A stretch of DNA of 64,000 nucleotides from contig JBFLZG010000066.1 in the NCBI GenBank assembly GCA_040756235.1, forward strand, positions 5,891-69,890, given 5' to 3'. The stretch is from a bacterium. Its GTDB lineage: Bacteria; Desulfobacterota; DSWW01. Under the pieces are notes generated by a model, which worked only from the letters and a program-made list of their open reading frames with translations, ran no database searches and was not told where the DNA came from. The position numbers were made by a program, and so were the translations under genes. Of this stretch, positions 6,243 through 48,769 are shown piece after piece (the stretch's first letter is position 1; the number at the start of each line of letters is the position of its first letter).

Positions 6243-6510
6243 AGCGCCGGCCGAGCCGGCCGGGATTCACTCATGACCGCTGCGATTTCTGTCTCCGGGG
6301 GATCCATCCGGGAGTATCCGACGTCCAAGTAGTAGGGCTTGAACAAAGTCGGAGAGTTCCGGGCATGAGGCATAGCCGCAAGAGAACGGGCGCGGCGACT
6401 CTGTTCGCAATCGCCATGACAACGGTCTTCGCCGCCCCTGGTTCGGCTAATTTCGGCGTTCCCCAAACGTCTGCCCTCCGGGTGCCTCAGCGGTGCGGCC
6501 ACATGCTTTC

Positions 6511-15537: not shown

Positions 15538-15738
15538 GAGGCTGTCCATAAATGCCCATCTGCGGAGCCTGTTGCGAGCGCAGCGAAGCAATCCCCCTGG
15601 CATCATGCTTGCGGCGGCCAGCTGTGACCGGGGGTTTCCTCGTCGCGCAGGCTCCTCGGAACAGGCCTCAGGATTTCACGCGCCTTGCATCTGGACATTT
15701 CTGAACAGCCTCCCGGAGCCGAATTCTCGGACAGACTC
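15538..15738. mobile_element. MITE-like element with GAGGCTGT terminal inverted repeats, flanked by CTAG
   Basis: CTAG|GAGGCTGTCC ... GGACAGACTC|CTAG, with an inner inverted end GGACATTTCTGAACAGCCTC. Related element at 26389-26592. Confidence 0.65.
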
Positions 15739-15759
15739 CTAGACAAACGGAGCTTCCCC

Positions 15760-18267
15760 ATGAAGAAAACGAAAAAGAACGCCATCTGGGTCTTTGCTTC
15801 GCACCACAGCGGCACGATCGATGCGGTCAGCCTCGAGCTGCTCGGGAAAGGGCAGCAAATCGCGGAGGCAGCCGGCGCTCCCCTGGAGGCCGTCCTGTTC
15901 GGCGGCGGGGGCGGGAACGGGGGCGGTGTGGGGGTCGAAAGCCTGCTGGCCGGGCTCGAGCACTCGGGCGCGTCGGCCGTCCGCCTGGTCGAAGACCCCC
16001 GCCTGGCCGCCTTCTCCTCGGCCGTCTACGCGCACGTGCTCGCCGAGCTCGTGCGGCGCCACGACCCGCAGGTGCTGCTCCTCGGCTCGGACAACCGCAA
16101 CGCCTCCCTCGCGGCGCGGGTCGCGGCGCGGCTCGGCACCGGCCTGAGCGCCCACTGCGTAGACCTCAAATTCGCAGGAAGCAACCTGGTCCAGACCGTG
16201 CCCGGGTTCGGCGGCAACCTCATGGCCAACATCGTGTGCCCGAGCCGGCGGCCGCAGATGGCGACCGTGACCGCCGGCATCTTCCAGCAGGCCGAGCGCA
16301 AGGACGTGACGGCCGCGGTCGTGCGGGAGGAAGTGCCGATCCCGGACGGGATCCGCAGCGCCCGCCAGATCGAGGTGGTGCGCCGCGAAGCCGGGGGGCG
16401 GGCGGACCTCGCCAAGGCGGAGGTCGTGGTGGCCGGCGGGTTCGGCGTCGGTTCGAAAGAGAGCTGGGACCTGATCGAGGACCTCGCCCGCGCCCTGGGC
16501 GGAGTCGTGGGAGCCACCCGGCCGCCCGTGGATGAAGGGTGGGCCGGGGCCGATCAGATGATCGGCGCGAGCGGCAAGGTCATCGCGCCGCGCCTCTACG
16601 TGGCCGTGGGCGTCTCGGGCATGATGCACCACACGGTCGGCGTGCGCGGGGCCAAGACGATCGTGGCGATCAACAGCGACCAGAAGGCCCCGATCTTCAC
16701 CATGGCCGACTACGGAATCGTGGGAGACCTGAAGCAGGTCCTGCCGGCCATCCTCTCCCGGATCACGACCGGCGAGGGCCTCGCGCCGCAGATCGAACCG
16801 CCGGGTAACACTCGGACCGCGGAGGACTACAAGGCGAGCCTGCGCGCGATGAAGCCGAACATGTACAAGCGCGGCCGGCTCATCGATGACCCGGTGAGCG
16901 ATCCCTTCACCAGCCGCACCGTGGCGGGCCACGCGCAGATCTTCGAGCTGGCGCGCGACCCCCGCTACCAGGAGCTGGTGACGACGATCTCGCACCTTAC
17001 GGGCAAGCGCGTTTCCCGCTACCTCACGGTCGTCCGGTCCGCCGAGGACCAGATCGCCAACAGCAAGATGAAGCGTCTCATGTTCCAGATGACCGGCACC
17101 TGCACCGGCGGGCGTTGCGTGGGCTGGACCGGGCTGAACGCGCTCTGGTCCACGACCTGGGACATGGACCGCGAGTTCGGCACGGACTATCACGAACGGC
17201 TCAAGAGCTGGCTGATCAGTGCCCAGGAGCGGGATATCACTTGCTCCGGGGCCCTTTCGGACCCCAAGGGGAACCGCAGAGCCTCCCCCTCGAAGCAGCC
17301 GGATCCGGACAGTTTCCTCAGGATCGTCAAGCGGCGCAAGGACGGCGTGGTGGTGCGCGGTGCCAAGATCATGATCTGCGGCACGGCCGCGGCGAACGAG
17401 ATCTTCGTCATGCCCGGGACGCGCATGAGACGTGAGGAGGCGGATTACGCCGTCTCCTTCGCCACCCCCAAGGACGCGCCCGGGATCACGATCGTCGAGG
17501 CGCGGCACCCTTCGGACGATCGCGAGCTCGAAGAAGGATTCGACAACCCGGTCACGCGCGGCGGCATCACCCAGGCCTACATCTTTTTCGAGGACGTCTT
17601 CGTTCCGAACGAGCGCCTCTTCATGGCCGGCGAGTACAGCTACGCCGGCGAGGCGGTCTTCCGGTTCACACTCCCCTACCGATCGGCGATCGGCGGGTGC
17701 GTGGCCGGACAGGGCGACGTCATGGTCGGCGCGGCGATCCTGATCGCCCGGGCCAACGGCCTGGATGAAAGGGTCTTTCGCGACAAGCTCATCGAGATGG
17801 TGGTGAACAACGAGACGACCTTCAGCGTGGGCGTGGCGGCGGCCGCGCTCGGCTCACAACACCCCTCCGGAGCGTGGCTGCCCAATCCCCTGCTGGCCCA
17901 CGCGAACAAGACGCACGTGGCCACGCTGCCTTACGAGACCAAGCGCCTGACCCAGGAGATCGCGGGCGGCATCGCCGAGACGGGCTGCATGCCGTCCTAC
18001 AAGGATTTCATCGACAGCCGATACGGCCACCTCATCCAGAAGTATCTGAAGGCGAACTCCCCGGCCGAGACGCGCATGCGGATCGCCCGGCTCATCGAGT
18101 GGCTGACCCTGGGCGCCGGCGTGCCGGGCTGCATGCACGGCGGAGGGTCGCCGGACGGCGCCCGGATGGTCGTCTACGCGCAGGCGGATTTCGAGGGCAT
18201 GATCGAGATGGCCAAGCGGGTCGGCGGGATTTCGGACATCTCGCTGGCCAAGCCGCCGGGGAAATAG
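15760..18267 (+). CDS. Fusion of electron transfer flavoprotein alpha subunit and a 4-hydroxybutyryl-CoA dehydratase (AbfD/HpaB-family)-like domain
   Basis: EtfA motifs (GLSAHC, PGFGGN, RPQMATV, GATRPPVD, GVSG..HH, AINSD..APIF) are continuous in one frame with AbfD-like motifs (TAEDYKASL, CTGGRC, DPKGNR, RGAK, GGC..GD, MHGGGSP). Confidence 0.9.
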   Translation: MKKTKKNAIWVFASHHSGTIDAVSLELLGKGQQIAEAAGAPLEAVLFGGGGGNGGGVGVESLLAGLEHSGASAVRLVEDPRLAAFSSAVYAHVLAELVRRHDPQVLLLGSDNRNASLAARVAARLGTGLSAHCVDLKFAGSNLVQTVPGFGGNLMANIVCPSRRPQMATVTAGIFQQAERKDVTAAVVREEVPIPDGIRSARQIEVVRREAGGRADLAKAEVVVAGGFGVGSKESWDLIEDLARALGGVVGATRPPVDEGWAGADQMIGASGKVIAPRLYVAVGVSGMMHHTVGVRGAKTIVAINSDQKAPIFTMADYGIVGDLKQVLPAILSRITTGEGLAPQIEPPGNTRTAEDYKASLRAMKPNMYKRGRLIDDPVSDPFTSRTVAGHAQIFELARDPRYQELVTTISHLTGKRVSRYLTVVRSAEDQIANSKMKRLMFQMTGTCTGGRCVGWTGLNALWSTTWDMDREFGTDYHERLKSWLISAQERDITCSGALSDPKGNRRASPSKQPDPDSFLRIVKRRKDGVVVRGAKIMICGTAAANEIFVMPGTRMRREEADYAVSFATPKDAPGITIVEARHPSDDRELEEGFDNPVTRGGITQAYIFFEDVFVPNERLFMAGEYSYAGEAVFRFTLPYRSAIGGCVAGQGDVMVGAAILIARANGLDERVFRDKLIEMVVNNETTFSVGVAAAALGSQHPSGAWLPNPLLAHANKTHVATLPYETKRLTQEIAGGIAETGCMPSYKDFIDSRYGHLIQKYLKANSPAETRMRIARLIEWLTLGAGVPGCMHGGGSPDGARMVVYAQADFEGMIEMAKRVGGISDISLAKPPGK

Positions 18268-18737: not shown

Positions 18738-19226
18738 TTGACCACGATCGAGTCGAAGATCCGGACCGCCCGGGAGCTCTTTGGGACGTACGCGGATGTA
18801 TGGCTGCTGGACTCCCGCATCCGGGCCCTGGTCGGCGAGCTCCGGACGCAATTGGATGCGTCCCGAAGAGCGATGTCCGAGGCAGGGATCCCCACCCTCT
18901 GCGTGCGTTGCGAGACGGAGGAGGGGGGCAGTTGCTGCGGGGCCGGGATCGAGGACCGCTACGGCGTCCCGCTCCTGGCCGTGAACCAGCTCCTGGGCTG
19001 CACCCTGCCCGATCGCCGGACGGGGGAAGAGAACTGCTACTTCCTCGGCGCGCAGGGCTGCCGGCTTGCCGCCCGCCACGTGCTCTGCGTCAACTACCTC
19101 TGCCGGAAGATCCAGAGAAGGCTGCCGCGCGAAGCGCTGGTGCGCGTGCAGAACGTGACCGGCGCCGAGCTGGAGACCGCCTTCCGACTCGAAGAGACGC
19201 TCAGACAGTCGATGCGGCCAGCCTGA
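18738..19226 (+). CDS. Cys-rich hypothetical protein (YkgJ/Fe-S cluster-like)
   Basis: CVRC..SCC, CYFL..GC.L..RH..CVNYLC. Start is TTG 18738 or ATG 18717. Confidence 0.7.
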   Translation: MTTIESKIRTARELFGTYADVWLLDSRIRALVGELRTQLDASRRAMSEAGIPTLCVRCETEEGGSCCGAGIEDRYGVPLLAVNQLLGCTLPDRRTGEENCYFLGAQGCRLAARHVLCVNYLCRKIQRRLPREALVRVQNVTGAELETAFRLEETLRQSMRPA

Positions 19227-19447
19227 GCTCAGGGGATCGGCTCGAGAGGCTACACCGGATCGGGCGGACGCGTGCGTCGCCCCTGCAACTACCGTGTCAT
19301 GTTCCGTCATCCCCGGCCAAGGCCGCGGCAGCGGCCGCGCGCCGGGATCCCGGGGCCCAGCGGGATTCCCGCGCCTGCCCCGGACTCGATCCGGGGTTCG
19401 CCGGAATGACGGGCCGGTCCCCCACCATTCCCCGAGTGCATTCGTTC

Positions 19448-19509
19448 TTGACACGAGAACCGTGGCCGTCTTATTCTGACATTGTGCCACAATTCTGACA
19501 CAGTGTCAG
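19448..19509 (+). promoter_or_regulatory. Sigma70-like promoter with probable TetR operator(s)
   Basis: TTGACA-N18-TATTCT; perfect palindrome CTGACAC-A-GTGTCAG (19495-19509) and a degenerate copy at 19476-19490. Confidence 0.7.
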
Positions 19510-19519
19510 GAAACGAGAG

Positions 19520-20191
19520 ATGGCTCGTCGAAACCGCGTCGCAGAGGAGCGCCAGGGGCGGATCGCCCGCATCCTCGAAGCCGGCGAGAAGCTCTTCATC
19601 CGCAAGGGCTTCAACCAGACCTCCATCCTGGACATTGCGGAACAAGCCGACTTCAGCCGCACCTCGATCTACCAGTACTTCCCGGGCAAGGAAGAGATCT
19701 ACGCCTCCATTCTCGAGAAGTACACGGACGAGCTCACCGATCGCATCGCCGGCGCGACCGCGGCCGCTCCTTCCACCGAGGAGAAGATCCGCGCTTTCCT
19801 GGACGAGATGAGGCGCATGAAACGGGAGAAGCCCGATTTCTTCCGCCTCTATTTCATCCAGCGCCACCTCGTGGAGCCGAAGCTCCGGCCCGCGCAGAGG
19901 GCTCAGCTCAACGCGAAGCGGCGGAAGCTGGAGAACGTCTTCCGCGACTTCTACCGGGAGGGGGCGGCCAGGGGCGAGGTCCGGCCCATCCGCATCAAGG
20001 ATGCATCGAACCTCTTCTTTGCGCAGATCATGGGGATGCTGCTGCTGCACGAGTACTATGGGGACGAGTTCGACGTCAGCCTGGACGAGCACCTCGATCA
20101 GTCGCTCGCGATGTATCTCGAGTACGTCGGCAAAGGGAATTCGAAGAGTCGGGCATCGGCAGGCTCAAACCGGAAGGTGTCAAGAGAATGA
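19520..20191 (+). CDS. TetR/AcrR family transcriptional regulator
   Basis: ILEAGEKLFIRKGF..TSILDIA..FSRTSIYQYFPGKEEI HTH. Confidence 0.92.
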   Translation: MARRNRVAEERQGRIARILEAGEKLFIRKGFNQTSILDIAEQADFSRTSIYQYFPGKEEIYASILEKYTDELTDRIAGATAAAPSTEEKIRAFLDEMRRMKREKPDFFRLYFIQRHLVEPKLRPAQRAQLNAKRRKLENVFRDFYREGAARGEVRPIRIKDASNLFFAQIMGMLLLHEYYGDEFDVSLDEHLDQSLAMYLEYVGKGNSKSRASAGSNRKVSRE

Positions 20192-20363
20192 ATGCCCTCT
20201 CCTCCGCGCGCGGGGGAGAGGGTCAGGGTGAGGGGGGGCAGGAGCAGGGGCACCCCTCATCCTGCCCTTCTCCCCTCGGCGAGGGGAGAAGGGAGGAAGA
20301 ATTCGACAGCCCTTTCCACCGGGGGAAAGCGCAGCACGTGACGGAGTTTGGAGGGTCCTGGAC

Positions 20364-22835
20364 ATGGCAAGAGCACTCGACCTCAAGGTTTTGTCGCCCC
20401 AGGAAGAGCGCATCGAGCAGGGCGAGCCGATCGGTCTCGCAACCGCAGAGGCGCAGCGCAAGCGCGCGCGCATCCACCGTATGCTCGCGGGCTTCCGGGA
20501 CAAGCCGATCCGCATCAACCTCGAAAGGGCGCGCCTTTTGACCGAGTCTCTGCGCCGAACCGAAGGCCAGCCGGTCGTGCTCAGATGGGGCAAGGCGGTG
20601 GCTCACATCCTGCGGAACGTGTCGGTGCGCATCGAAGAGGACGAGCTCATCGTCGGCACCGCGGGCCCGCCGGGCCGCTACGCGATCTTCTTCCCCGAGC
20701 TGGAGGAGAAGTTCTTCTCGCACGAGGTAAACCCCAGCAAGCCCGGGGATCTTCTGGCCCTCACGGAGGAGGACGTCCGCGCCATCAACGAGGAGCTCCG
20801 GCCGTACTGGCAGGGCAGGCAGTACCACACGGCCTACATCAACGCCCTTCCCGAGGATACGCGCGCGCTTCTGGAATTGTATTGCCTGGTCATTCCCACG
20901 GCCACGGCCCGATCGAGCCTGGCGTGGAACCATGACTACGAGAAGGTCCTCCGGCGCGGGGTCGGAGGGATCCGGCGGGAGGCCGCAGAGAAGCTGGCCT
21001 CGCTCGACCCGTTCGATCCCAAGGCGAAGGTCGAGAAGGAGCCGTTCCTCGAGGCGGTGGTCCTGGTCTGCGAAGCGATCGTGGAGCTCGCCCATCGCTA
21101 TGCCGCGCTGGCCCGCGCCATGGCCGAGGGGGAGCGAAGCCAGAAGAGAAAGCAGGAACTCCTCGAGATCGCCGCGGTCTGCGAGCGGGTGCCGGAGCAC
21201 CCGGCCCGGACCTTCCGCGAGGCGGTCCAGTCCCAGTGGCTCATCCAGGTCGTCTCCCGTCTCGAGCAGCGCATCGGGGGGACGATCGGCAACGGCCGCA
21301 TCGACCAGTACCTGTATCCTTTCTACAGGAGCGATCTCGACCAAGGCCGGCTGACCGAGGACGAGGCGCTGGAGCTCGTCGAATGCCTGTGGATCGGCAT
21401 GGCCCGCAACGTCGAGATCTACACGTCGCCCGGGAGCCTCTCCTTCACGGACGGCTACGCCCACTGGGAGGCCACCACGATCGGCGGTGTGGACAGGGAC
21501 GGCAAGGACGCCACCAACGATCTGTCCTACCTCATGCTCCGGTCCAAGCGGGAATTCCCGCTGAACTACCCGGACCTGGCCGCCCGCATCCATGCGGGGA
21601 CCCCGGAGCCGTTCCTGCACGCCATCGCCGAGACGATCAAGGAAGGTACCGGCTTCCCGAAGCTCTTCTTCGATGAGGAGATCATCCCTCTCCTGCTGGC
21701 CAAGGGCGGGGCGGTCGCGGAGGCAAACGACTACTGCATCTGCGGCTGCACCGAGGCCAAGATGATCAATCGGGACGCCGTGATGACCGGGTGCGCCTGG
21801 GTGAATCTCGGCGCCGCGGTGGAGATGACCTTGCGCGGCGGCAGGCTGAAGGTCTTCGGAGACAGGCAGACCGGCGCGCCGACGGGCGACCCCAAGGAAT
21901 TCAAGTCCTACGAGGACCTCTGGGGCGCCTTCCGCAGCCAGCTCGAGCTCCTGCTCCGGCACACGTTCGTCCAGCAGTACGTGGCGGACACCCTCAAGGC
22001 GGACTTCATCGCCGCGCCTATGTCGTCCATGCTCCACGACCTCGCCATGCGCGCGTGCAAGGACCTGCACGCCGGCCCGATCGAAGGCGCCCTCTACCTG
22101 GGCTACATCGATACCTTGGGCTTTGCCACTGCGGTCGACTCGCTGGCCGCCATCCGCAAGCTCGTCTTCGACGAGCGCAAGCTCACGATGGGAGAGCTCC
22201 TGGAGGCTGTGGACGCCAATTTCGAAGGCCGCGAGGCGATCCGGCAGCTTTGCCTGAATGCGCCCAAGTACGGCAACAACGATCCCGATGCGGACCGCAT
22301 CGGCCGGGACATCGAAGAGCTCGGGGTGCGGCTGACCCGGAGGTACCCGTCCGCCTTCGGCGGAGAGCTGGACATCCGGTACGTGACGATCACCGCCCAT
22401 GTGCCCTTCGGCGCCGTGCTGGCCGCCACGCCCGACGGCCGCAAGGCCGGGGAGCCGATCTCCGAGGGCGTGAGCCCTTCGCAGGGGGCGGACCGGAAAG
22501 GCCCCACGGCGACGCTCGCCTCGATCGCCAGCACCAAGGCCTCCGGATACCGGGAGCGCGCAGCGCGCCTGCTCAACATGAAGATCTCGCCCTCGGCCGT
22601 GGCCGGCCCCGGGGGCACGAAGAAGCTCATGTCCCTGATCCGGACTGCCTGCGACCTCAAGATGTGGCACCTGCAGTTCAACATCATCAACCGCGAGACG
22701 CTCATCGCCGCCAAGAAGAATCCTGACAAGTATCGGAACCTGCTCGTGCGGGTGGCCGGCTACAGCGCCTATTTCGTGGACCTCACGCCGCAGCTTCAGG
22801 ACGAGATCATTCACCGGACCGAGCACAGCTTTTGA
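20364..22835 (+). CDS. Glycyl radical enzyme, isethionate sulfite-lyase (IslA/HpsG)-like clade
   Basis: Gly loop RVAGYSAYF, Cys loop GCTE, and clade motifs GYAHWEA, YPDLAARIH, RSS..W.HDY and HVPFG. Confidence 0.9.
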   Translation: MARALDLKVLSPQEERIEQGEPIGLATAEAQRKRARIHRMLAGFRDKPIRINLERARLLTESLRRTEGQPVVLRWGKAVAHILRNVSVRIEEDELIVGTAGPPGRYAIFFPELEEKFFSHEVNPSKPGDLLALTEEDVRAINEELRPYWQGRQYHTAYINALPEDTRALLELYCLVIPTATARSSLAWNHDYEKVLRRGVGGIRREAAEKLASLDPFDPKAKVEKEPFLEAVVLVCEAIVELAHRYAALARAMAEGERSQKRKQELLEIAAVCERVPEHPARTFREAVQSQWLIQVVSRLEQRIGGTIGNGRIDQYLYPFYRSDLDQGRLTEDEALELVECLWIGMARNVEIYTSPGSLSFTDGYAHWEATTIGGVDRDGKDATNDLSYLMLRSKREFPLNYPDLAARIHAGTPEPFLHAIAETIKEGTGFPKLFFDEEIIPLLLAKGGAVAEANDYCICGCTEAKMINRDAVMTGCAWVNLGAAVEMTLRGGRLKVFGDRQTGAPTGDPKEFKSYEDLWGAFRSQLELLLRHTFVQQYVADTLKADFIAAPMSSMLHDLAMRACKDLHAGPIEGALYLGYIDTLGFATAVDSLAAIRKLVFDERKLTMGELLEAVDANFEGREAIRQLCLNAPKYGNNDPDADRIGRDIEELGVRLTRRYPSAFGGELDIRYVTITAHVPFGAVLAATPDGRKAGEPISEGVSPSQGADRKGPTATLASIASTKASGYRERAARLLNMKISPSAVAGPGGTKKLMSLIRTACDLKMWHLQFNIINRETLIAAKKNPDKYRNLLVRVAGYSAYFVDLTPQLQDEIIHRTEHSF

Positions 22836-23050
22836 GACGCCGGGGGGTGGTCTACGGGGGAGCAGGGACTGGATTCCGGCCTGCGCCGGAATGACGGAGA
22901 AGCGGACGCTTGTGTTACGTCTTCCCGGGCCAAGGCCGCCGGAGCGGCCGCGAGCCGGGATCCCGGGGCCCAGAGGGATTCCCGCTTGCGCGGGAATGAC
23001 GGCCCTCTATGACACGGGTCCTGCGCGGAAATGACGAAAGACGGCTCCCC

Positions 23051-23983
23051 ATGACCACATCGAACAGCGTGACCGGCCTCGTCTTCAACATCCAGAAATT
23101 CTCGCTCCACGACGGGGCCGGGATTCGGACACTCGTCTTTCTCAAGGGATGCCCGCTGGCGTGCTTGTGGTGCGCGAACCCCGAGGGGCAGTCGCCCGCC
23201 GCCGAGCTGGCCTTGAGCTTGCGGCGCTGCATCGGCACCAAGGAGTGCGGCCGCTGCCTCGAGGCCTGCGATCAGCGGGCCATTCGCGCCGCACCGGAAG
23301 GAGGCCTCTCGATCGACCGGGACGCCTGCGTCCTGTGCGGCCGCTGCGTGGACGCCTGCCCTTGCGGGGCGCTCGAGCTCATGGGGAGGCCGATGACCGT
23401 CGAGGAGGTGGTCCGCGCAGTCGAGGAGGACGGCAGCTTCTACGCCCGCTCGGGCGGCGGGCTGACGCTGAGCGGCGGGGAGCCGCTGCTGCAGATCGCG
23501 TTCGTCGAGCGGCTCCTCGCGACGGCGCGCGGCAGGGGGATCGACACGGCCCTGGAAACCTCGGGGCTCTGCAGGTGGGAGGACCTGGAGGCGGCGTGCA
23601 GGAGCCTCGACCACCTCTTCTACGACATCAAGATCCTGGACACAGCGAAGCACCGGGAGGGCACAGGGGTCGGAAACGAGCGGATCCTGGAGAACCTCGA
23701 GAGGCTCTGCAGCATGCGCACGCACCTTCCGGTGACCGTGAGGACGCCGGTCATTCCGCGGTTCAACGATGCGCCCGCCGACATCCAGGCAGTGGCAGCC
23801 TTCGTGTCACGGTTGCCCGGGCCGGTCTCCTACGAGCTCCTCCCCTACCACGGCTTCGGGGAGCCCAAGTACGGCCACCTCGGCAAGACGTACCCGCTCC
23901 GAGGTGCGTCGCCCCCGGCCCGGGAGCGCATGGCGGCCTTGCAGGCGCTCGTGCCGGAGAGGCTGCGCCCAACTGGAAGATGA
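23051..23983 (+). CDS. Glycyl-radical enzyme activating protein (radical SAM with 2x[4Fe-4S] insert)
   Basis: IQKFSLHDGAGIRT, GCPLACLWCANPE, ferredoxin insert CVLCGRCVDACP, SGGEP and LLPYH. Confidence 0.95.
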   Translation: MTTSNSVTGLVFNIQKFSLHDGAGIRTLVFLKGCPLACLWCANPEGQSPAAELALSLRRCIGTKECGRCLEACDQRAIRAAPEGGLSIDRDACVLCGRCVDACPCGALELMGRPMTVEEVVRAVEEDGSFYARSGGGLTLSGGEPLLQIAFVERLLATARGRGIDTALETSGLCRWEDLEAACRSLDHLFYDIKILDTAKHREGTGVGNERILENLERLCSMRTHLPVTVRTPVIPRFNDAPADIQAVAAFVSRLPGPVSYELLPYHGFGEPKYGHLGKTYPLRGASPPARERMAALQALVPERLRPTGR

Positions 23984-24108
23984 AGGAGCGGCAACTCCCC
24001 CTTTTCCAGAAAATCCCCCCGAACCCCCCTTTTTCAAAGGGGGGCCTCCAACCTTGATGTTCCCTTCCTTCTCCCCTCAGCGAGAGGAGAAGGAAGCAAC
24101 CACGGCCC

Positions 24109-24966
24109 CTACTTCGAGTAGTCGTAGAAGCCCTTGCCGGTCTTGCGGCCGAAGTGGCCGGCCCGGACCATCTTGCGCAGGAGCGGGCACGCCCTGTACT
24201 TGGGATCGCCGAACTCCTTGTAGAGGTTGTCCTGGACCATGAGCAGCGTGTCCAGACCGACCAGGTCGGCCAGGGCAAGCGGTCCGATGGGATGGTTTGC
24301 GCCCAGCACCATGCCCTTGTCGATATCCTCCGCCGAGGCGATCCCTTCCTGCAGGGCGAAGATGGCCTCGTTGATCATGGGCACGAGGATGCGGTTCACC
24401 GCGAACCCGGGCGCCTCGTTCACCGCGATCGGCGTCTTGCCCATTTTCTCGGAAAGCGCCTTGATGACGCCGAACGTCTCTTCGGAGGTGGACTGCCCCT
24501 TGATGATCTCCACGAGCTTCATGACCGGCACCGGATTGAAGAAGTGCATGCCGATCACCTTGTCCGGCCGCTTGGTCGCGGAGGCGATCTCCGTGATGGA
24601 AAGGCCCGAGGTGTTGGAGGCGAAGATCGTTTCCTTCCCGCAGAGCCGTTCGAGCTCGCTGTAGACCTGCTTCTTCAGGTCCATGTTCTCGATCACGGCT
24701 TCGATGACGACCTGGGCGCCCTTCACCGCGGCCGCGAGATCCACGACTCCCGTGACCTTCGCAAGGATCCCCTCGGCCTGCTCGGAGGTCATCTTGCCCT
24801 TGCCGATGGCCCGCTCGTAGTTCTTCCGGATCGTCTTGAGACCGCCCTGGACGAACCGGTCCTCGATGTCGCGCATGGAGACCTCGTAGCCGGCCTCCGC
24901 CGCCACCTGCGAAATTCCCGCTCCCATCAGCCCTGCGCCCAGCACACAGATCTTCCTGATTGCCAT
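24109..24966 (-). CDS. hbd: 3-hydroxybutyryl-CoA dehydrogenase
   Basis: [41 protein letters not shown] and GRKTGKGFY. Confidence 0.93.
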
Positions 24967-45584: not shown

Positions 45585-46898
45585 ATGGCAAAAGTCTACT
45601 ACATGGACGACCGCTCCCAGTCGATTCAGACGAGCCTGGTTGCCAAGACGATGACCCTGTTCGACGCCGCCGGCTTCCGGGAGCTCGTCCAGCCCGGGCA
45701 GGTGGTGGCCGTGAAGGTCCACATGGGCGAGTTCAACAACACGGCCTACATCCGCCCCGTGTACGTGCGGGCGCTCGTGGACAAGATCCGGAGCCTGGGC
45801 GGGGAGCCGATGGTGGTGGATACGACCACGCTGCCCTACCACCCGCACACCTCCCGGTCCACGTCCCTGGACTACCTGAAGACGGTGGCCCGAAACGGCT
45901 TCACCGAGGCGACCGTGGGCTGCCCGATCGTGATCGCGGACGGGTACATCGGGACGGATGATGTCCACGTCGACCTGCCTGAAGGTTTCATTCTGAAGGA
46001 GCAGTACGTCGCCACCGGCATCGCTCTGGCCGACGCCATGATCGCGCTCTCTCATTTCAAAGGCCATCCCATGGGCACTTACGGAGGGGCGATCAAGAAT
46101 ATCGGGGTGGGCTGCGCTTCCAAGAGGGGCAAGCTCAACCTGCACATGGGGGGCCACGACCGCTACGGGCTCAAGAGCCGTCACTGGATGCCGGAGCGGT
46201 GCCTGAAGGAGGAATGCCCCCAGTACCAGGTCTGTCTCGATCTCTGTCCGACCGGCGCCATCCGCCACACCCCGGACACGGTCGAGTTCGTGCGGGACAA
46301 GTGCATCGGGTGCCTGGCCTGCATCGGCGTCGTGACCATGTGCGGCGTGGCCTTCCTGCCCGACGACTACTTCGATGTGACCGCGGCCGCCATCGCCGAT
46401 TCGGCCCTGGCGGTGACCAAGGCCATCGGCGCGGGCAAGATCGGATATATCAACATGGCCCTGGACATCTCGCCCTGGTGTGACTGCGTGAACTACAGCG
46501 ACCGGCCCATCGTGCCCAACCTGGGGATCTTCGCGTCCTGGGACGCGGTGGCCATCGACTCGGCCTGCATCCGCAAGGCCAAGGATGCGGCCGGCATGCC
46601 GGACTCGATGGCCATGACCAAGGGCACCATGAGCCCGGGCACGGCCAAGTTCTCCGCCTGCGGCTCTTTCCTCGGGGTGAGCGAGGAGATCCAGCCCAAC
46701 GTGGGGCAGAAGATCGGATTGGGAACGCGCCAGTTCGAGCTCGAGGAGCTGCAGCCGCCCGAGGACCCCGCGCCGTTCCTGTGCACTCAGGTGCCGGCCG
46801 GCGCCAAGCTGGGCAAGCTGTTCGCGAAGAAAGGGGATCTCATCCCGGCAAAGGGGTTCAAGAGGGTCGAGGAAGTCGAGATCGAGGACATGAGATAG
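45585..46898 (+). CDS. DUF362 domain Fe-S protein
   Basis: VKVHMGE, HFKGH..YGGAIKNIGVGC, ferredoxin insert, SPWCDC and DAVAID. Confidence 0.88.
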   Translation: MAKVYYMDDRSQSIQTSLVAKTMTLFDAAGFRELVQPGQVVAVKVHMGEFNNTAYIRPVYVRALVDKIRSLGGEPMVVDTTTLPYHPHTSRSTSLDYLKTVARNGFTEATVGCPIVIADGYIGTDDVHVDLPEGFILKEQYVATGIALADAMIALSHFKGHPMGTYGGAIKNIGVGCASKRGKLNLHMGGHDRYGLKSRHWMPERCLKEECPQYQVCLDLCPTGAIRHTPDTVEFVRDKCIGCLACIGVVTMCGVAFLPDDYFDVTAAAIADSALAVTKAIGAGKIGYINMALDISPWCDCVNYSDRPIVPNLGIFASWDAVAIDSACIRKAKDAAGMPDSMAMTKGTMSPGTAKFSACGSFLGVSEEIQPNVGQKIGLGTRQFELEELQPPEDPAPFLCTQVPAGAKLGKLFAKKGDLIPAKGFKRVEEVEIEDMR

Positions 46899-46912
46899 CT
46901 TGGAGGGATGCC

Positions 46913-48769
46913 ATGCTTGGTTACATGGGAAAGATCCTTCGCGTGAACCTGTCTGACGGCAAGATCACCCGGCAGGACGTCGATCCGCAGATGGCCCAGA
47001 GCTACATCGGAGGAGCCGGGTTTGCGACCCAGCTCATCTTCGAGGAGGTGCCGGCCAAGTGCGATCCTCTGGGGCCGGACAACCGGCTGGTCTTCATGAC
47101 CGGACCGGTCACCGGAACGGCCTTCCCTACGTCCGGCCGCTTCGTCGTGGCCACGAAGTCGCCGCTGACCGGTATCCTGGCGACGTCCGCTTCCTCGGGC
47201 TTCTGGGGGGTCGAGCTGAAGCGCACCGGCCACGACGGCATCATCTTCGAAGGCAAGGCCGCTCGGCCCGTGTACCTGGAGATCCGGGACGACGAGGTTG
47301 CGCTGAAGGACGCCTCGGATCTCCGGGGCAAGGACGCCTATGAGACGCAGGACGTCCTGAGAGAGCGGTTGGGCAAGAAGAGGGCGCGGGTCGCCTGCAT
47401 CGGGCCCGCCGGAGAGAAGCTCGCCCCGATCGCCTGCGTGATGAACGATGCCGGACGGGCTGCCGGCCGCGGCGGCGTCGGCGCGGTCATGGGCTCGAAG
47501 AACTTGAAGGCCATCGTGGTCCTTGGGTCGCGCAAGATCGAGACCGCTGCGGACGAGTTTCTCAAGCTCATGACCAAGGAGGTCATCAAAGGGATCCAGG
47601 CGGACCCGTTCGCCGGGTTCTTCACGAAGTGGGGCACGGCTTTCAGCATGGACATGGGCTGGGCCGCCGGGGACGTGCCGGTCAAGAACTGGCAGGTCGG
47701 CCAGTGGGGGGAGGGCTGCACGAAGCTGGGGGGTGCGCGGATGGCCGCGACCATCCTCAAGCCGCACACGGGCGCGTGCCACAACTGCCCGATCCGGTGC
47801 GCCCGTTGGGTCCAGGTCCCGGAAGGCCGCTTCGCCTATGAAGGGCCCGGCCCTGAGTACGAGACCCTGGGCGCCTTCGGGACCATGCTCCTCATCGACG
47901 ACCTGGAGGCGGTCTCCTGGATGGGCGAGCTGTGCAACAAGTACGGGCTGGACACCATCTCCGCGGGCTGCACCATCGCCTGGGCCATGGAGGCTTACGA
48001 GAAAGGGGCGATCACCCAAAAAGACACGGGCGGGCTCGAGCTCACCTGGGGCAACGTGGACGCGGCGGTCCGGCTCGTGGAGCAGATGGGGCGCGTGGAG
48101 GGGTTCGGCGCCCTGCTGGCCCAGGGGTCCCGCGAAGCGGCACGGAAAGTCGGAAAAGGCTCCGAGGAGTACGCCATCCAGGTCAAGGGGCTCGAGGTCC
48201 CGATGCACGATCCGCGGTGCTACTTCAGCCTGGCGGTGAACTACGCGACCGGCACGAGGGGCGCTTGCCACGTGCAGGGCGGCTCCTACGTGGTCGAGAT
48301 CGGCGTGATCAGCCCGGAGACCGGCCTCTCGCACCGGCAGGGGCGGTTCGACAAGAAGAACAAGGGGCTGGCGGCCAAGGCCTTCCAGGACCTGAGCGCG
48401 ATCTACAACTCCACCGCGGTCTGCATGTTCGCCGCCATGGGGCTGCAGCCGTCGCACCTGGGCACCCTGCTCAGCATCGTCACGGGCATGCCCCACAACG
48501 CCTTCACGGTCCTGCAGGCGGGCGAGCGGATCATCAACCTCCAGCGGGCCTTCGCGTGCCGGGAAGGGATTTCGAAAAAGGACGACGTGCTGCCCAAGCG
48601 GCTCGTCACGCCTCTGCCGGACGGCGGGGCGGCGGGAAAGGCGGCCGATCTCGAATACCAACTCAAAGAGTACTATCAGCTGAGGCAGTGGGACGACAAC
48701 GGGATTCCGAAGCGGGAGAAGCTCGAGGCGCTGGGCCTCGCCCGGGCTGCCAGGGACCTGCACGGGTGA
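46913..48769 (+). CDS. aor: Aldehyde:ferredoxin oxidoreductase family (tungsten/AOR)
   Basis: KSPLTG, IGPAGE, AGRGGVGAVMGSKNLKA, CHNCPIRC, EYET, GLDTIS and RGACH. Confidence 0.93.
   Translation: MLGYMGKILRVNLSDGKITRQDVDPQMAQSYIGGAGFATQLIFEEVPAKCDPLGPDNRLVFMTGPVTGTAFPTSGRFVVATKSPLTGILATSASSGFWGVELKRTGHDGIIFEGKAARPVYLEIRDDEVALKDASDLRGKDAYETQDVLRERLGKKRARVACIGPAGEKLAPIACVMNDAGRAAGRGGVGAVMGSKNLKAIVVLGSRKIETAADEFLKLMTKEVIKGIQADPFAGFFTKWGTAFSMDMGWAAGDVPVKNWQVGQWGEGCTKLGGARMAATILKPHTGACHNCPIRCARWVQVPEGRFAYEGPGPEYETLGAFGTMLLIDDLEAVSWMGELCNKYGLDTISAGCTIAWAMEAYEKGAITQKDTGGLELTWGNVDAAVRLVEQMGRVEGFGALLAQGSREAARKVGKGSEEYAIQVKGLEVPMHDPRCYFSLAVNYATGTRGACHVQGGSYVVEIGVISPETGLSHRQGRFDKKNKGLAAKAFQDLSAIYNSTAVCMFAAMGLQPSHLGTLLSIVTGMPHNAFTVLQAGERIINLQRAFACREGISKKDDVLPKRLVTPLPDGGAAGKAADLEYQLKEYYQLRQWDDNGIPKREKLEALGLARAARDLHG

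Follow-up and report, generated by a model that had tools for sequence, protein, structure and literature searches.

Which compound does the glycyl radical enzyme (GRE) encoded at positions 20364 to 22835 of this DNA act on? The DNA, called the window here, is a stretch of 64,000 nucleotides from a Desulfobacterota genome (contig JBFLZG010000066.1). GREs, which are oxygen-sensitive, convert choline to trimethylamine, act on hydroxyproline, and release sulfite from isethionate or 2,3-dihydroxypropane-1-sulfonate (DHPS), the sulfite leading on to hydrogen sulfide. The GRE of the window is related to the isethionate enzyme IslA (IseG) and the DHPS enzyme HpsG, and its family is uncharacterised, with a pocket that is a new variant within this known kind of enzyme. 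As read from its sequence, it is probably a 1,2-eliminase of the radical type whose substrate is an anionic beta-hydroxy compound, though neither isethionate nor S-DHPS. Its gene is part of a three-gene cassette, presumably under TetR repression:

19520..20191, + strand: TetR-family regulator, 223 aa (TetR_N 56 bits, TetR_C_24 31 bits)
20364..22835, + strand: GRE, 823 aa (intact open reading frame, Pfam domains, alignments to solved structures)
23009..23983, + strand: GRE-activating radical-SAM enzyme, 324 aa (Pfam and NCBIfam matches)

The GRE is made up of a PFL-like barrel (PF02901, 600 bits) and a C-terminal glycine-radical domain (PF01228, 103 bits), in which the RVxG motif is found as RVAGY at residues 796-800. 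Further motifs are RSSLAW (183-188), GYAHWEA (364-370), GCTE (461-464), MTGCAW (474-479), and DIRYVTITAH (670-679), and YPDLAARIH and RAARL are also present. The residues of note are Gly799, Cys462, and Glu464, together with Arg183, Ala187, Gly306, Trp368, Arg672, Val674, Thr675, Ile676, Cys477, and Trp479.

The activase has Radical_SAM and Fer4 domains by Pfam, a CX3CX2C motif at C48/C52/C55, and a ferredoxin-like two-cluster insert. It scores 332 bits against the GRE-activase model TIGR02494 (cut-off 174) and 403.9 bits against the HpsH model NF048010, under the cut-off of 430. The ATG at 23051 may be its real start. The initial annotation had related GRE and activase to IslA from their motifs, and the reading frames, the domains, and every motif it quoted bear this out.

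The substrate pocket

Residues of the GRE were paired with those of three solved structures by HMMER alignment: IseG (5ymr, 943.7 bits), IslA (7kq3, 888.1 bits), and HpsG (6lon, 868.3 bits). IslA/IseG and HpsG are the only C-S-cleaving GREs listed in sections 5.6, 5.7, and 7 of the June 2026 GRE review (PMC13450708). According to the review, Glu470, Gln193, Arg189, Arg678, and Val680 are essential for catalysis in IslA. The roles of the arginines are taken from section 5.6.3 of that review and from PMC8473560, and those of the HpsG residues from the review.

Cys462 and Glu464 of the GCTE loop pair with C468/E470 of IslA and C462/E464 of HpsG, and Trp368 corresponds to W374 of IslA. Both sulfonate-binding arginines are retained, as the initial annotation had read from the motifs. 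Arg183 is equivalent to R189 of IslA and R183 of HpsG, and Arg672 to R678 of IslA and R672 of HpsG. On strand beta-8, Val674 is paired with V680 of IslA, Thr675 with P681, and Ile676 with F682. The MTGCAW stretch occupies the TSGGAY position.

The third member of the anion site is changed. Gln193 of IslA (Gln187 of HpsG) is Ala187 in the GRE, and the triad reads R183/A187/R672. The Gln193 site of IslA is also the one that gives Asp216 in CutC and His160 in HypD, according to PMC8473560 (Dawson et al. 2021). Position 187 is His in many dehydratase-like relatives (alignment rows P0139-P0167). The GRE family lacks a functional side chain where all characterised eliminases handle the leaving group, and its pocket appears to be opened at two points. 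The second point is Gly306, which replaces Thr312 of IslA.

Each substitution named in the initial annotation is seen in the alignments, as is the shorter loop before the RSS strand, the first barrel strand, which has 7 residues fewer than in 5ymr, 7kq3, and 6lon. The pocket differences are fixed family-wide. Remodelling of the pocket is real, but the changes of Phe to Ile and GG to GC are common to HpsG and so are not novel. The original list of pocket changes is correct as far as it goes, but it had overlooked the second fixed change, Thr312 to Gly306. The site as a whole is distinct, as had been proposed: no characterised GRE with an identical pocket is found in the PDB or in sections 5.6, 5.7, and 7 of PMC13450708.

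The comparison with an AlphaFold model that the initial annotation had called for places the GRE closest to IseG, IslA, and HpsG. The AlphaFold2 model, made on a 58-row alignment, has a pLDDT of 92.4 and a pTM of 0.92. Its top structural matches are IseG 5ymr (TM 0.92/0.95), IslA 7kq3 (0.95/0.95), and HpsG 6lon (0.93/0.95). Glycerol and propanediol dehydratases, CutC, and HypD come behind these at TM 0.87-0.89.

IslA and IseG resemble the GRE in fold (TM 0.92-0.95) and are 49-53% identical to it. The GRE keeps the Gly radical loop, the Cys-x-Glu loop, Trp368, both sulfonate-binding arginines, and Val674, and its activase partner likewise has two ferredoxin clusters. It differs from IslA/IseG at Gln193/Ala187, Thr312/Gly306, Pro681/Thr, Phe682/Ile, GG/GC, and Tyr/Trp (GRE second), and in the loop before beta-1, shorter by 7 residues. 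The GRE also belongs to a separate clade and is found in a TetR cassette rather than in a context of bacterial microcompartment (BMC), AdhE, or transporter genes.

HpsG has the same fold and 48% identity, with both arginines and the CXE motif retained in the GRE. Ile676, at the position of Phe682 in IslA, and the Cys in the T-S/T-G-C stretch are features that separate HpsG from IslA, and the GRE has both. In contrast, Gln187, Pro, and Tyr of HpsG are Ala, Thr, and Trp in the GRE, which carries Gly306 where the HpsG orthologue has Ala. The GRE lies outside the IslA/HpsG clade, and its activase stays under the HpsH equivalog cut-off.

Glycerol and propanediol dehydratases, HypD, HpfG, and CutC share the PFL2/glycerol-dehydratase fold and the CXE motif with the GRE, which scores 624.9 bits against TIGR01774. 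Identity to these dehydratases and C-N lyase is only 31-34%, and the His or Asp that they carry at the Ala187 position is missing from the GRE. Equivalog scores are far under the cut-offs: CutC 551.7 of 1050, HypD 531.4 of 1100, and HpfG (NF048009) 457.3 of 1000.

The family and its placement

A search of 5.8 billion proteins returned the query and, among the matches listed, at least 119 relatives that are 66-82% identical, none of them functionally named. The family has at least 119 clusters at 90% identity. The relatives listed come from metagenomes and from metagenome-assembled genomes (MAGs) labelled Abyssobacteria, Poribacteria, Myxococcota/Polyangiales, and Deltaproteobacteria. Genome and metagenome scans add MAGs labelled Dehalococcoidia, Syntrophobacteria, Desulfobacteraceae, Thermodesulfobacteriota, Spirochaetales, Planctomycetota, and Gemmatimonadota. 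This is a large family, found in MAGs of many phylum labels and in environmental metagenomes, in a minimal cassette of regulator, enzyme, and activase. No characterised member was found in the open-access and bioRxiv papers searched.

Motif columns are shared by all 119 relatives: R-[ST]-x-L-A-W, GC[TS]E, TG-CAW, and RY[VA]-[TSN]-[IV]-T, and also RVAG[YF]. In the 58-row alignment Cys462 never varies, and Gly799 and Glu464 seldom or never do. Ala187, Arg183, Arg672, and Cys462/Glu464 are kept in 116 of 116 full-length members, so the pocket substitutions are not the noise of a single sequence. Between these 116 members and 15 sequences of the IslA/HpsG clade, 37 positions are fixed differently. 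Those in or near the pocket are Gln to Ala187 (100% versus 100%), Thr312 of IslA to Gly306, Arg to Lys466, Ser to Thr475, Tyr to Trp479, and Ala to Gly483.

Reference genes of the IslA and HpsG types were drawn from genomes of the same phylum and then checked against the PDB (1528-1625 bits). Two of them, L063 and L073, match IslA 7kq3 at approximately 1530 bits, and L074 matches HpsG 6lon at 1625 bits. The IslA and HpsG orthologues share 61-64% identity with one another. The GRE is 48.6-50.5% identical to them (48.6% to the HpsG orthologue) and 53.9% identical to another relative, L053.

Two trees were built, a quick one of 79 rows with every fourth family member and a careful one of 42 rows with outgroups and 18 members; both cover sequences longer than about 780-800 aa, fragments being excluded. 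In both, the GRE family is a single clade (100/100), and IslA and HpsG fall in another (100/100). The family branches outside a moderately supported group (91/99), in which the IslA/HpsG clade is joined by one more uncharacterised clade and by some singletons. The name "IslA-clade" in the initial annotation is inaccurate in this respect, and the tree it had proposed gives the family a clade of its own. A separate family of the IslA-like superclade is the accurate placement. The family is a good and clearly delimited target for finding new enzymes, but many uncharacterised GRE clades are known, according to PMC13450708.

Another well-supported uncharacterised clade of the same superclade is made up of L066, L067, L068, P0125, and P0127. 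The pocket motif reads R-[SH]-S-Q-N-W in P0125 and P0127, and the Cys loop in this clade is GCCE, GCSE, GCVE, or GCIE. On beta-8, three of the five have M/L/V-R-x-I-P-I-T.

Database models name these proteins too narrowly. The NCBIfam equivalog NF048011 for HpsG, "(2S)-3-sulfopropanediol dehydratase", matches the GRE at 1160.8 bits (cut-off 1000), and other members of the family (P0044, P0081, and P0097 tested) at 1137-1192 bits. The same model gives 1546.6 bits for the IslA orthologue (L063), 1512.9 for the HpsG orthologue (L074), 1582.8 for L053, 1289 for L065, and 1011 (1011.3) for L066, which has a quite different pocket. Since IslA, HpsG, and L066 are all over the cut-off, a match to NF048011 is a superclade-level assignment and not functional evidence.

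No IslA-named model is among the NCBIfam matches of the GRE, and a Protein Atlas search returned generic GRE clusters only. The nearest representatives at 50% identity, found by a search of the representative library and cluster look-up, are unnamed. The sole names met, "(2S)-3-sulfopropanediol dehydratase" in PGAP style, belong to Mailhella proteins whose pockets are different. Pipelines using NF048011 will misname IslA and several uncharacterised clades, and labels of this kind on such proteins are no basis for inferring sulfonate metabolism.

Candidate reactions and substrates

The three genes would form a self-contained cassette under TetR repression. The activase would put a radical on Gly799, and the radical would move on from there to Cys462. 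With the substrate anion held by Arg183 and Arg672, a ketyl radical would form and expel the group on the adjacent carbon, yielding an aldehyde or methyl ketone.

Because Ala and Gly replace Gln193 and Thr312, isethionate or S-DHPS, held as IslA or HpsG hold them, is most likely not the substrate. It is probably a different anion, larger or of another shape. The bulkier hydroxyalkyl-sulfonate or carboxylate suggested in the initial annotation would be a candidate. A bulkier or longer anion, or a second substituent, may fit in the space left by Ala187 and Gly306, and the HpsG-like Ile676 and Cys477 could point to a secondary alcohol with at least three carbons. Ala187 argues against a hydroxyl leaving group, since that would need a general acid, and favours a group that leaves readily, for instance the anion itself. 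As to the class of substrate, another sulfonate with sulfite leaving is tentatively put first. A carboxylate-anchored compound with a nitrogen or oxygen leaving group is possible at a lower level, as is something else altogether, and a phosphate or sulfate ester or a phosphonate is less likely still.

Several points weigh against a substrate other than isethionate or S-DHPS. The family is known here through sequence and predicted structure, and the pocket geometry is read from the sequence alignment and the literature, not from model coordinates. The NF048011 score of 1160.8 bits exceeds 1000, and automated annotation would name the GRE a DHPS enzyme. The conserved Thr/Ser675 and Trp479 could donate hydrogen bonds in place of the lost Gln, and isethionate or DHPS activity could persist. 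The genome carries DsrA, so sulfite could be used. Hints from gene context diverge: some lineages have CoA-ester genes nearby, and one has a DASS-type anion transporter.

One special case of the main reading concerns the nature of the anion. Here the two arginines would hold a carboxylate, the substrate being, for example, a 3-hydroxy acid with its leaving group at C4 or a 2-hydroxy acid with its leaving group at C3. The keto- or aldehyde-acid product would become a CoA ester and enter beta-oxidation-type metabolism. This is possible, if somewhat doubtful. Loss of the hydrogen-bond donor (Gln to Ala) would suit an anion of two oxygens over one of three, and the flanks in the window encode CoA-ester enzymes: acyl-CoA dehydrogenase, electron transfer flavoprotein (ETF), an ETF-alpha fusion, 3-hydroxyacyl-CoA dehydrogenase, and crotonase. 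An acyl-CoA synthetase gene is present in 8 of 38 family loci and an acyl-CoA dehydrogenase or crotonase gene in L113 and L121. A short-chain dehydrogenase/reductase (SDR) in nine loci comes near the 3-hydroxybutyrate dehydrogenase cut-off (254 versus 258 bits).

However, CoA-ester genes abound in these genomes and are weak evidence. The synthetase in the largest group of loci adjoins a polyketide synthase (PKS)/acyltransferase cluster and may belong there. The genome of the window has no close orthologues of the SDR, thiamine pyrophosphate (TPP)-enzyme, and aminotransferase neighbours seen in close relatives, and in many loci the neighbours are only housekeeping genes. A hydroxyl leaving group would also need a general acid, and position 187 offers none.

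An ordinary isethionate or S-DHPS sulfite-lyase, that is, an IslA/HpsG orthologue with a drifted pocket that feeds sulfite respiration, is improbable. The NF048011 score over its cut-off speaks for it, as do the two arginines, Val674, and the CXE motif, all kept, and the fold, near-identical to IseG, IslA, and HpsG (TM 0.92-0.95). NF048011 does not discriminate, however (IslA orthologue 1546.6 bits, HpsG orthologue 1512.9, L066 1011). In all 116 family members compared, Ala stands in for the Gln reported to be essential in IslA, and the family forms its own clade. The family adjoins the C-S lyases yet lacks a residue that they require.

Sulfite reduction bears on the same alternative from both sides. 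The genome of the window encodes DsrA (581.9 bits, cut-off 392.85) with a DsrB-like gene beside it. Among five carriers of the family with other phylum labels, one has DsrA over the cut-off; it was not found in the four labelled Abyssobacteria, Dehalococcoidia, Poribacteria, and Myxococcota, genomes that are possibly incomplete. With DsrA over the cut-off in only one of the five, the GRE family is not bound to dissimilatory sulfite reduction as IslA and HpsG are described to be. Companion genes of a sulfite-lyase were likewise not found. A Pfam scan of the 40 window open reading frames supported by GC content at third codon positions found no BMC shell, AdhE, or TRAP/sulfonate transporter domain, in agreement with the initial annotation, and no sulfonate transporter, BMC, or AdhE gene is conserved across the 38 loci.

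Chemistry beyond that of IslA, another special case of the main reading, is a weaker proposal still. The pocket opened by Ala187 and Gly306 would allow either the binding of a longer anion linked through an ester (phosphate or sulfate) or the 1,2-migration of a phosphonate group, the latter a reaction that IslA cannot carry out. According to PMC8473560, 2-hydroxyethylphosphonate is not turned over by IslA and its reaction would need migration, which Gln193 and Thr312 apparently block sterically by closing the pocket. These two apparent blockers are Ala and Gly throughout the family. Against this, no phosphonate, phosphite, or phosphatase-related gene is conserved beside the cassette, no extra basic residue for a dianion was identified, and the case is built on two residues and the structure of another enzyme. 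The specific reaction, 1,2-phosphono migration in a hydroxyalkyl-phosphonate with release of phosphite and an aldehyde or ketone, or else beta-elimination from a phosphate or sulfate ester, is a long shot. If migration were true, GREs would gain a new bond class, and anoxic sediments and groundwater would have a biological source of phosphite, encoded by a cassette apparently mobile between phyla.

A decayed or non-catalytic paralogue is scarcely credible: the 12 GRE genes of the genome make redundancy possible, but the frame is intact, every radical-chemistry residue is present, the pocket is strictly conserved in at least 119 relatives from many lineages, and the GRE has its own activase and regulator.

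A named substrate for this family would bring a further reaction into the anaerobic cycling of carbon, sulfur, or phosphorus. The inducer of the TetR regulator is probably the substrate or the product. The conserved TetR gene and its putative operator offer an unusually direct way to the substrate, via the inducer.

Regulation, neighbours, and genome

Four further elements surround the genes of the cassette:

19448..19477, + strand: sigma-70-like promoter upstream of the TetR gene (TTGACA, 18-nt spacer, TATTCT; 10 of 12 consensus matches)
19476..19509: two adjacent palindromic sites CTGACAnnnTGTCAG, perfect at 19495-19509 and with two mismatches at 19476-19490
20195..20293: GC-rich hairpin-forming spacer between TetR gene and GRE gene, with inverted repeats I1, I3, and I4 (14-41 nt arms)
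22884..23002, + strand: two copies of the interspersed motif CGC[C/G]GGAATGACGG in the GRE-activase spacer, at most one mismatch

The perfect palindrome, CTGACACAGTGTCAG at 19495-19509, is the sole perfect match within the window. A copy with at most three mismatches is found at the TetR start in 17 of 18 TetR-bearing loci (the window and 17 related ones), across phylum labels; the chance expectation is approximately 0.04 per region by the authors' own estimate. The palindrome is absent from the three loci with no called TetR gene. It is a putative TetR operator, and the TetR-GRE-activase operon may be autoregulated and released by an inducer. The solved structures nearest to TetR are structural-genomics entries that hold no informative ligand. 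The promoter scan of 19200-24200 gave two sites versus 0.3 expected from shuffles, each a consensus match alone, and no T-tract terminator is seen in the TetR-GRE spacer.

The interspersed motif CGC[C/G]GGAATGACGG has copies with at most one mismatch at 6510, 18710, 19399, 22884, 22989, and 49210 (14-nt cores). The copies are intergenic, often lie within an imperfect palindrome, and are also found in the 1.25-kb gap before the TetR gene. At up to three mismatches there are 30 matches versus 17.8 expected. The motif is REP-like in appearance.

TetR and activase are the only recurring neighbours of the GRE. Among 21 loci of at least 8 kb, 18 have a TetR orthologue directly upstream and 16 an activase orthologue downstream; among 38 loci of at least 5.5 kb, the numbers are 28 and 27. 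The counts are lower bounds, as several loci stop at contig edges. Flanking genes otherwise vary by lineage. In the window, the order before the cassette is amidohydrolase, acyl-CoA dehydrogenase, ETF-beta, an 860-aa ETF-alpha fusion, the repeat-rich gap, and TetR; convergent 3-hydroxyacyl-CoA dehydrogenase and crotonase genes follow the activase. The fusion (15685-18267, + strand), directly 3' of the ETF-beta and acyl-CoA dehydrogenase genes, joins ETF-alpha (residues 34-321) to a module of the HpaB/4-hydroxybutyryl-CoA-dehydratase family (378-846).

In close relatives, an SDR, two TPP enzymes, a glyoxalase-fold protein, and a HemL-like aminotransferase are encoded upstream of the cassette, and acyl-CoA synthetase, acyltransferases, and a PKS downstream. 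Six loci (L020, L021, L022, L090, L091, and L095) have on the same strand, 3' of the cassette, acyl-CoA synthetase, lipid-A-type acyltransferase, hexapeptide transferase, and KS-AT-ACP PKS genes. A second lineage is flanked by a sigma-54 activator, a cNMP-binding regulator, FAD oxidoreductases, and an OYE/FadH-type reductase. The three loci most like that of the GRE have a DASS-type anion symporter, an Na/H exchanger, and DUF169. Many other loci are flanked by housekeeping genes, e.g., trigger factor, ClpPX, ThrRS, and UvrA.

The TPP enzyme of the close relatives was considered as Xsc of the taurine pathway and rejected, with 239-250 bits versus Xsc cut-offs of 620-676. Its best matches are acetolactate-synthase and 2-hydroxyacyl-CoA-lyase-like models, all under cut-off. 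The HemL-like nature of the aminotransferase also opposes a taurine reading, as does the lack of close orthologues of these neighbours in the genome of the window, where the best matches to the SDR, TPP enzyme, and aminotransferase are 40%, 41%, and 37% identical.

Family records bearing different phylum labels are 74-81% identical, which suggests horizontal spread, bearing in mind that MAG labels can be wrong. Genes for IS200-type transposases lie a few kb from the cassette in two loci (L009, 17461-18135; L014, cluster 17/34), and a phage-type integrase gene does so in L019 (8858-9760). These neighbours, together with the identity across labels, suggest that the cassette spreads horizontally.

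The genome of the window is 6.3 Mb, 90.8% complete with 6.4% contamination, and encodes 12 GREs, mostly orphan, an unusually large set for one organism. The other eleven (L077-L087) are on contigs C1 (three copies), C6, C23, C24, C30, C84, C108, C132, and C137 and are at most 37% identical to the 823-aa GRE. None is over any NCBIfam equivalog cut-off, and L081 alone clears that of the generic subfamily model TIGR01774. Their matches at E <= 1e-100 include no PFL or benzylsuccinate-synthase model.

An aldehyde:ferredoxin oxidoreductase gene, preceded by a DUF362 gene, is located in the window at 45585-48766 (+ strand), 24 kb downstream of the GRE. Another is at 2572-4533 in L016, 3.5 kb upstream of the cassette. 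These neighbours could be coincidence or a link to the handling of aldehydes.

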